From the NCBI GenBank assembly GCA_964016885.1, contig OZ024740.1, forward strand, positions 57,784,001-57,848,000: DNA of 64,000 bases, given 5' to 3'. Positions 8,763 to 11,116 of the stretch are shown piece by piece. Made by a program: the position numbers and the translations under genes. The notes under the pieces were generated by a model. That model was not told the origin of the DNA, did not search any database, and saw nothing but the letters and a program-made list of their open reading frames with translations. The stretch's first letter is position 1. Every line of letters begins with the position of its first letter. The DNA comes from Eledone cirrhosa. Its lineage: Eukaryota.

Positions 8763-11116
8763 AAGCTAGGAGACAAGTGTACTTAGCAAGAAGGGAAGCT
8801 GAGGAAAGAAAGAAAGTTCAAGCATGTTCTACAACGCGATGACCAAAAACGTGAGGTGTTCAGGATTGCTAGGCAATGCGTCAAGGAAAACCGTGATATT
8901 GTCGGGGAGAAGTGTGTACTAAACGACGATGGCACACTTGCCATCACCGACGCTGATAAGAAGGTAGCTTGGAAGTGTCACTATGAAAGGCTTCTAAATG
9001 AGGAGAATAATTGGGAGAAAGGCAGTCTCCCCCATATCGACCCAATAGAGGGACCAGCAGTGTTAGTCGAGGGGAGTATAATAAGTAAGGCAATCAAGGA
9101 TATGAAGACTGGTAAGGCGGCTGGGCCTTCGGAAATAGTTGCTGAGATGCTGAAGGCATCTGGCACGGTGGGACACACCATGGTCACCCGCATAGTTAAC
9201 CAAGTCGTACAGAATGGGGTTGTTCCGAAGGACTGGCATAGCAGCATCATCGTTAACTGTTATAAGGGTAAAGGAGACGCCCTAGATAGGAGTAACTATA
9301 GAGGCATTAAATTAATCGACCAGGTCATGAAGGTCACGGAAAGAGTAATAGCGCAACTAATCAGAGAGAGAATTGACCTAGATGAAATGCAGTTCGGGTT
9401 TGTGTCAGGCAAAAGTACCACAGACGCTCTTTTCATAGTACGACAACTACAGGAGAAGTACCTAGCTAAAGGTAAACCCCTCTACTTAGCTTTTGTCGAC
9501 TTGGAGAAAGCCTTCGACAGAGTCCCCCGCTCCATTATCTGGTGGGCTCTTAGAAAACTAGGCGTTGACGAATGGCTTGTGAGGGCTATACAAGCCATGT
9601 ATAAAGAAACAGTCAGCAAGGTTAGAATTAACAACGAATATAGTGAAGAGTTTAGCGTAAAAGTTGGCGTCCATCAGGGCTCTGTTCTCAGTCCACTACT
9701 ATTTATTATTGCCCTTCAGGCTATAACAGAGGAGTTCAAGACAGGCTGCCCATGGGAACTCCTATACGCAGACGACCTGACACTCATAGCGGAATCAATG
9801 GCCGAGCTAGAGAAGAAATTCCAAACATGGAAGCACGGCCTAGAGTCAAAAGGACTTAAAATTAACCTGGCTAAGACCAAAGTGCTAGTTTGTAGGAAAG
9901 AAAACAAGGCGGCGGTCCCTTCTGGGAAATGGTCGTGCTCGGTGTGTAGGAAAGGCGTAGGTAGAAACTCCATTTTATGTCCTAAATGCAAAGTATGGGT
10001 GCATAAAAGATGTAGTGGGATCACAGGTAAGCTAACTAAGAACATAGATTTTACATGTGGCCGGTGCTCTGGTGCAATAAGTAGCAGCAAGTGCCCACAA
10101 ACTACTAGCTCTTTCAATTGCGCAGAGGGTTCTATAGAAATAGTGGACAGCTTCCGTTACCTGGGCGATAAAATCAGCAGTGGGGGAGGGTGCTCTGAAA
10201 GTACTGTAGCTAGAGTCAGAACTGGTTGGAAAAAGTTCAGAGAGCTTATACCACTATTAGCTGCTAAAGGGTTCTCACTAAAAATGAAAGGCAGGTTGTA
10301 CGATGCCTGCATACGAACAGCAATGCTGCATGGCAGTGAGACCTGGGCATTGTGTGCAGAGGATATACGCAGACTAGAGAGGAACGAAGCTTGCATGCTC
10401 CGCTGGATGTGTAACAGTAATATACGTGAACGGCAAAGCATAAACGAACTAAGGAAAAAATTAGAGATAAGAGGGATCAGATGTTGTTTACTCGAGAGAA
10501 GGCTACGTTGGTATGGACACGTGATGCGCATGAAAGTCGATAGCTGTATAACAAAGTGCAGGGCAATAAAGATAGACGGTAGTCACGGAATAGGCAGACC
10601 TAGAAAAACCTGGGACGAGCTGATAAACTCCGACATCACACACTTACACCTCTCCAAGACAATGTCACTGGACCGAGACCTTTGGCGGTACTCAGTAACA
10701 GAGAAGACCCGCCTTACCTAAATATATAGTAAAACCTACTCCAGCCAGTAGGCATCTCTAACAAAATACACCCCGTCCCACCACCCCCACCCCCACCCGA
10801 TCCACACCACCCCGTTCTATGTAAAGTTATGTTGGTGCCGCGCCTTCGAGGCCGAAACAAATGAGATCGTGTAGGTGTCACGACAAAAAAACACACAGTC
10901 CACGCTGTAATGTGGCCGTGTAGGCAACACGGTAAAAACCTCCCAGACCCACACTGTAAATGTGGTTGGTGTTAGGAAGGGCATCCAACTGTAGAAAACC
11001 TGCCAGACAGTCCTATGCGAGCAAGACAATCACTCTTGCCTCAAGTGGGACTACCCCCGTCCAAACCCATGCAAGCGTGGAACACGGACGTTAAACGTTG
11101 ATGATGATGATGATGA
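8760..11116 (+). mobile_element. RTE-clade LINE subfamily A, 5'-truncated (no APE), open RT ORF
   Basis: ORF 8856-10721 (621 aa) has all RT motifs, the PHD insert and the RTE C-terminal RLRWYGHV...GRPRKTW. Structured 3' UTR and (GAT)n tail. Both ends in (TA)n. Confidence 0.95.
8856..10721 (+). CDS. RTE reverse transcriptase (partial ORF2) with internal C4HC3 PHD-type finger
   Basis: [57 protein letters not shown]. Confidence 0.9.
   Translation: MFRIARQCVKENRDIVGEKCVLNDDGTLAITDADKKVAWKCHYERLLNEENNWEKGSLPHIDPIEGPAVLVEGSIISKAIKDMKTGKAAGPSEIVAEMLKASGTVGHTMVTRIVNQVVQNGVVPKDWHSSIIVNCYKGKGDALDRSNYRGIKLIDQVMKVTERVIAQLIRERIDLDEMQFGFVSGKSTTDALFIVRQLQEKYLAKGKPLYLAFVDLEKAFDRVPRSIIWWALRKLGVDEWLVRAIQAMYKETVSKVRINNEYSEEFSVKVGVHQGSVLSPLLFIIALQAITEEFKTGCPWELLYADDLTLIAESMAELEKKFQTWKHGLESKGLKINLAKTKVLVCRKENKAAVPSGKWSCSVCRKGVGRNSILCPKCKVWVHKRCSGITGKLTKNIDFTCGRCSGAISSSKCPQTTSSFNCAEGSIEIVDSFRYLGDKISSGGGCSESTVARVRTGWKKFRELIPLLAAKGFSLKMKGRLYDACIRTAMLHGSETWALCAEDIRRLERNEACMLRWMCNSNIRERQSINELRKKLEIRGIRCCLLERRLRWYGHVMRMKVDSCITKCRAIKIDGSHGIGRPRKTWDELINSDITHLHLSKTMSLDRDLWRYSVTEKTRLT

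Follow-up and report, generated by a model that had tools for sequence, protein, structure and literature searches.

The 3' UTR of a truncated LINE in Eledone cirrhosa contains a run of short, interleaved complementary segments ahead of a (GAT)n tail, which raises the question of where this run came from, whether it folds into pseudoknots and what it would do for the element. The stretch analysed (the window) comprises 64,000 nt of contig OZ024740.1, and the genome searched amounts to 3.0 Gb. From the comparison of element families it is clear that the array is a duplicated piece of an RTE 5' UTR, an apparently undescribed history and an origin that the preliminary description of the locus missed.

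In the full-length relatives of the truncated LINE a single ORF holds both endonuclease and reverse transcriptase, and on that arrangement, together with the accepted classification of LINEs, we take the element to belong to the RTE clade. Families A and B are those of the window, C is the old copy at 25-26.5 kb, and D and E are further families in the genome. Between window positions 4600 and 15000, RTE copies are clustered in both orientations and their flanks are nearly always (TA)n microsatellites, which suggests a target preference. A different LINE (two ORFs, reverse transcriptase domain) occupies 53594-59216 and 62314-64000, with a partial inverted copy (96%). An octopus RTE with a microsatellite 3' UTR has been reported, structure not being discussed in the accessible part of that paper (PMC9115989).

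The family A array and its counterparts in the window

A search for H-type knots with strict Watson-Crick pairing (loop 1 of 0-3 nt, loop 2 of 0-2 nt, loop 3 of 3-10 nt, at least 7 bp) gave a chain length of 4 in the family A 3' UTR, over 10867-10965 (Table 1). The four consecutive knots that had been proposed were all recovered exactly as written, with the reservation that the third has a second stem of only 3 bp, in a shifted register. In shuffles of the 99 nt, a chain of 3 occurred in 0 of 1500 and a chain of 2 in 15 of 1500, while shuffling the 49-nt unit and then doubling it gave a chain of 4 in 0 of 1500 and a chain of 3 in 5 of 1500; two knots within a single unit were found in just 1-7 of 3000 shuffles. 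The same search returned at most 2 in the ORF and 1 in the antisense UTR. With tightened loops (loop 1 of 1-2 nt, loop 2 of 0-1 nt) the family A chain falls to 1, so the count of 4 depends on a loop 1 of 3 nt and one of 0 nt. The four knots are a tandem pair of one 49-nt unit (PKa followed by PKb). In terms of complementarity, the crossing stems, feasible loops and back-to-back arrangement of an H-type array are all present, the third knot being marginal and family B having two knots.

Table 1. Features of the family A element and related modules, in window coordinates
Feature	Position	Strand	Remarks
ORF2 of RTE-clade LINE family A, 5'-truncated	8787..10721	+	Reverse transcriptase and PHD finger; stop codon 10719-10721
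Spacer, C-rich	10722..10866	+	3' part from about 10820 a probable decayed further unit (by-eye reading)
PKa, unit 1	10867..10894	+	TCGTG/CACGA; GTGT/ACAC; stem 1 covaries
PKb, unit 1	10895..10915	+	ACAG/CTGT; CCAC/GTGG
PKa, unit 2	10916..10941	+	Strong hairpin CCGTGT/ACACGG; stem 2 decayed to 3 bp, shifted register
PKb, unit 2	10944..10965	+	CAG/CTG; CCACA/TGTGG; alternative pairing of its 5' end with the first bases of the core hairpin possible
Core hairpin around AGGAAGGGCATCC, with A-rich 3' flank	10964..10997	+	5' UTR location in family D and in RTEs of other organisms
ATG 41 nt from core	11015..11017	+	Same spacing as for the genuine start codon where the module lies in the 5' UTR
3' terminal stem-loop and (GAT)n tail	11057..11116	+	Homologous to the tail directly after the ORF in family D
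Family B module, 2 units and core	45514..45645	+	Knot search
Further family B module	7427-7560	+	
Further family B module	11375-11513	-	
Family C old 3' UTR	26130..26470	+	Tandem repeat, now decayed, whose unit is longer (~140 nt) and comprises a third knot (PKc) besides PKa, PKb and core

For family B, the preliminary description had claimed the same topology with changed pairs; both named pair changes are real, but a C.A mismatch in the third knot (the second PKa) limits the chain to 2 in each of the three window copies. In the old RTE at ~26175 (family C) the GGTGC/GCACC pairing is kept, as had been stated, but no knot there passes the strict search. The initial observation is partly confirmed.

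Families C and D have a third knot, PKc, which precedes PKa and is predicted to be stronger (stems of 4 + 8 bp, loop 3 containing a small hairpin); examples are found at window positions 26262-26312 (family C) and in L093 (family D 5' UTR, minus strand, about 2090-2135). PKc was lost in families A and B. In the 3' UTR of younger family A copies (L140-L158), unit 2 and the core are duplicated together, over 112 nt. No Rfam family matched in the window, nor in the UTRs even at loose E-values, and viral contigs gave 0 matches.

A module shared with the leader of family D

Exact matches to a 34-letter pattern of the core number 77,038 in this genome, and the core stem shows one-sided changes only. 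Among ORF ends, a core before the tail was found in 40 of 44 for family A, 21 of 22 for B, the single one for C and 0 of 24 for D, the remaining ends being too short, without both or (one A copy) without the module; in a full-length A copy, L150, the whole module is absent. Family D has the core at its other end, just before the ATG and together with PKa and PKb, in 15 of 18 copies, the other three being cut at the ATG, and older family D copies have two or three units plus PKc. The tail of family D directly abuts the ORF and has the same (GAT)n ending as in family A, and many D copies retain intact 1024-aa frames. Conversely, the shared 5' region of family A contains no module in 20 copies (11 of them sharing at least 550 nt), and neither does the 5' region of family B in 2 copies. 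Five of the 20 A copies do have matches further upstream, but in four cases the match is another element that ends in a tail of its own, and in the fifth it falls beyond a copy whose shared part is only 33 nt long; the idea that A uses the module of an upstream element in head-to-tail arrangement was rejected on account of those separate tails. The module of the array is homologous to the family D leader, and its 5' and 3' positions are mutually exclusive, each of A, B, C and D having it at one end only; two old family E copies have it at neither end. Family A itself (L140-L159) has a long 5' region that includes tandem repeats of ~170 nt, a CCAAT motif and a C-rich stretch, and B has a similar CCAAT motif.

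Outside the genome, a scan with the core pattern gave 24 loci (19 metagenome loci and 5 contigs in bacterial bins), in which the invariance of the core is imposed by the search pattern. The five contigs filed as bacterial (L230-L234) carry RTE or SINE sequence and are probably eukaryotic contamination. In 6 of the 24 loci the core is immediately followed by an RTE endonuclease, in one case also with the first knot, while several others look SINE-like by eye. A PKa-only HMM run over 26 kb placed L086 (E 0.004) and L074 (E 0.37) at the top, both hits just before the core; at the PKb position these two have, by eye, a plain hairpin. A possible pseudoknot of different shape, again by eye, lies just upstream of the core in L075, L078 and L231-L234.

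The core of L082 comes immediately after a match to twister-P1 (E 5e-6), whose 41 bits fall below the gathering score; the ribozyme-like segment (86-162, minus strand) has its first stem unpaired, as in the Perere-3 twister variants. Structured leaders of non-LTR elements are indeed known, in the form of those twister variants (PMC8501958) and of HDV-like ribozymes (PMC6765202). What ribozyme or IRES-like leaders share with the present case is a structured RTE leader before the start codon, including the twister-like match of L082; the difference is that the window module is not a recognisable ribozyme, neither the A 3' UTR nor the old D 5' UTR matching the twister covariance model at E up to 10. 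PKb as the decayed 3' half of a twister was considered and not accepted (p 0.08).

Trees suggest that the 5' UTR is the ancestral site. In an endonuclease tree (28 rows, L085 omitted as too short, midpoint root) A and B group together (99/94) as sister to D (95/87), and the outside loci with a 5' core branch earlier; in a C-terminal tree (18 rows, midpoint root) A, B and C group (89/91, not starred), with D at 100/99. The simplest reading would be a single 5' to 3' move at the base of A+B+C. The ATG downstream of the family A core is likely a fossil start codon; families B and C retain similar ATGAGC words, and old D has, for comparison, an in-frame start at +38.

The move itself probably involved capture, by template switching, of an RTE derivative that had kept its 5' and 3' parts through internal deletion, as we infer from the combination of leader piece and tail, which is the look of such derivatives (PMC5786205); L086, from another organism, looks like an internally deleted donor of this kind. 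Kojima (2018) described a segment from the middle of the RTE 5' UTR that is linked to the 3' tail of an RTE and retained in SINEs with tRNA heads, with exchange of tails (PMC5786205), and the module likewise has a homologue in autonomous RTE 5' UTRs and is joined to an RTE 3' tail. The accessible part of that work treats sequence similarity only; it neither proposes an RNA fold nor describes an autonomous LINE with such a piece in its 3' UTR, and the core motif is absent from the text of its supplement (figures may not be text). More generally, the literature searched (mostly without subscription papers and Repbase reports) yielded no description of pseudoknots in RTE UTRs, of a leader-to-tail move or of the core motif, in line with the initial impression that the array was undescribed.

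The module has also been retained by a non-coding SINE, in which a family B unit was found in 34 of 35 cores, 30 of these with a D-type tail. This abundant SINE (L034 9076-9460, plus strand; L063; L048) combines a tRNA-like head, recognised by eye, with B unit, core and mostly a D tail, and its body is presumably CORE/Deu-like; ARAGORN called no tRNA in the head. In addition, the unit occurs at 48-49 nt as free minisatellites with broken stems (L048 1430-2300; G000:C2:25783542-25786556; G000:C8:49343768-49344228), an expansion that looks neutral.

Words of family A sampled at window positions 10560-11110 are present at 38-60% in sequencing runs of 13 other organisms, for which relatives, diet and transfer are equally compatible explanations. 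Family A was found with the same variants in 3 of 4 sequencing runs checked, which added no independent covariation.

Covariation and the predicted fold

When ten lineage-level copies chosen by hand, L074 and L086 among them, are aligned on sequence alone, stem 1 of PKa shows changes on both sides at 4 of 7 pairs, with one pair occurring in all four Watson-Crick types, and 1 of 500 shuffles scored as high. The stem is 3-4 bp in C and D versus 5-7 bp in A and B, and its double changes appear to have arisen after the 5' to 3' move. For PKb it is stem 2 that changes in a compensatory way: at least 4 bp are kept in 12 of 12 haplotypes with at least 3 copies, and an A-T pair among them is replaced by T-A in B and in old D, and by a T.G wobble in D. 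Compensatory changes are thus present in one stem of each of these knots. The other stem fares less well, since the CAG/CTG stem of PKb shows no covariation and stem 2 of PKa has one double change, a score reached by 48 of 500 shuffles, with one of its pairs standard in 148 of 270 units and broken in about 45%. The claim of covariation between subfamilies is supported for PKa stem 1 and PKb stem 2, their crossing partners showing little or none. These values come from about ten lineage-level sequences that are mutually related, and the shuffle counts are not probabilities. GGAG/CTCC was rejected as a compensatory pair, because GGAG is often opposed by CACC, a mismatch, among the first 100 of 177 matches.

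For PKc, stem 1 gave p 0.014 (hand-counted over the first 100 of 234 matches, tandem neighbours included) and stem 2 p 0.055 on 27 loci, or p 0.015 on 11 rows only, and 48 family C copies gave p 0.40 and 0.05; when MI-APC was applied to 66 old copies of PKc, family structure dominated the signal. Over twelve units of the own genome, 80.8% of cells in the whole structure pair, versus 29-48% in slid registers. The energy of the family A chain was estimated as stacking plus a penalty (approximate values after two published parameter sets), and amounts to about -19 or -38 kcal/mol depending on the set, versus -24.5 kcal/mol for the best nested fold; the order of pseudoknot and hairpin thus differs between parameter sets and energy does not decide. 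Nested folding z-scores are about 0.

It could be that only hairpins form, and that the crossing complementarity is a by-product of repeated GTG/CAC words, which would fit the crossing stems with little or no covariation and the tie in energies under one model. The base at the PKa junction argues otherwise, as in 233 of 270 units it pairs with either the first or the second stem (the main exception matching a minisatellite haplotype), and such partner switching favours a true knot. The weak covariation in both PKc stems and the rarity of two knots in shuffled units point in the same direction. A fold of hairpins only, which would overlap with several of the functional explanations below, is accordingly considered unlikely, although it is the strongest of the competitors. 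Overall, the module is real, abundant and probably structured, and stacked pseudoknots with putative crossing stems are predicted beside a conserved hairpin.

What the module may do

The explanation favoured here is that the module is a position-independent handle, which would dock the RNA on ORF2p or on the ribosome that makes it; the 3' array would then have been kept to hold the RNA on its own ORF2p or on the translating ribosome. The probability of this explanation is put at about 0.4. It is favoured by the SINE, which is non-coding and hence gains nothing from translation, but would gain by capture of ORF2p. Against a need for such docking are the E copies without a module at either end, the decay of the duplicates and the spread of the unit as minisatellites. 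A precedent for protein recognition is found in R2, whose protein grips a 3' UTR pseudoknot (PMC12180492). The pseudoknot-hinge-stem of the R2 A-clade resembles the array in being a pseudoknot in a non-LTR 3' UTR, and is a model for its recognition by protein; it differs in being a single knot within the last 65 nt, bound by zinc fingers, in a different clade, whereas the RTE chain lies about 135 nt from the tail.

Alternatively, the 3' copy may be a passenger, i.e. functional in the 5' UTR only and, once captured, multiplied by slippage and slowly decaying. This would account for the loss of PKa stem 2 from the second units in A and B, for the differing number of units among copies, for the minisatellites made of stem-broken units and for the loss of the entire module (before or after insertion) from L150. 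It is harder to reconcile with the longer PKa stem 1 in A and B than in C and D, with double changes that seem to post-date the move and with the persistence of the module in three families and a SINE. Stems can, however, lengthen through template-switch correction without selection. On balance, a mere passenger seems rather improbable, and the docking handle is preferred to it.

A role in translation, the reading nearest to that of the preliminary description, ranks next and is also considered unlikely: the module would have been a cap-independent initiation element (an IRES) in the leader, and a 3' translation enhancer like those of plant viruses once moved, with SINEs using it both as a ribosome seat and for ORF2p capture. 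In 5 of the 6 outside loci with a downstream endonuclease an ATG follows the core at 40-44 nt, after an A-rich spacer and with frames of at least 93 aa in four, and old D has its in-frame ATG at +38. The twister-P1 match before the core of L082 is also consistent with such a role, given that RTE RNA cleaved by a leading twister is translated cap-free (PMC8501958). The spacing is nevertheless no strict ruler: six 5' loci have +38 to +44, but the value is +55 for L085 and +71 for young D. Moreover, the 5' region of A and B is a different one and contains a CCAAT motif, so their RNAs are probably capped, and the SINE has kept the unit while being non-coding.

The remaining idea, in keeping with the role in RNA stability raised in the preliminary description, is that the stacked knots take the place of poly(A) in guarding the (GAT)n-ended RNA against decay from its 3' end, and it is very improbable. 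Its precedent is the upstream pseudoknot domain of tobamoviruses, a row of three pseudoknots that reportedly stands in for poly(A) (PMC4683447), which like the array consists of small consecutive H-type pseudoknots in a 3' UTR with no templated poly(A). The RTE array differs in having no tRNA-like structure after it, in deriving from the element's own leader by duplication, in lacking an Rfam match and in being known here from sequence; the likeness arises because one unit was tandemly duplicated. A substitute would be needed wherever the RNA lacks poly(A), and family D, with the same tail, is abundant and has many intact frames without a 3' array (0 of 24), which undercuts the idea. In addition, the end of the array is 135 nt upstream of the tail, so that a stall there would lose the terminal stem-loop, and the predicted stability is marginal.

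The conservation of RTE 5' UTR pieces and their repeated uptake by SINEs have been unexplained, transcription-factor binding having been the guess of Kojima (2018) for the 5' UTR piece (PMC5786205), and the module supplies a concrete predicted RNA fold for them. If the module does dock ribosomes, this would explain the recurrence of RTE 5' UTR pieces in SINE bodies. The genome offers a natural experiment, in which sister families have the module at opposite ends and a SINE joins the B module to the D tail, so that translation and capture of ORF2p can be tested against each other directly. With so many exact core matches in the genome, any activity of the module could touch many host transcripts.
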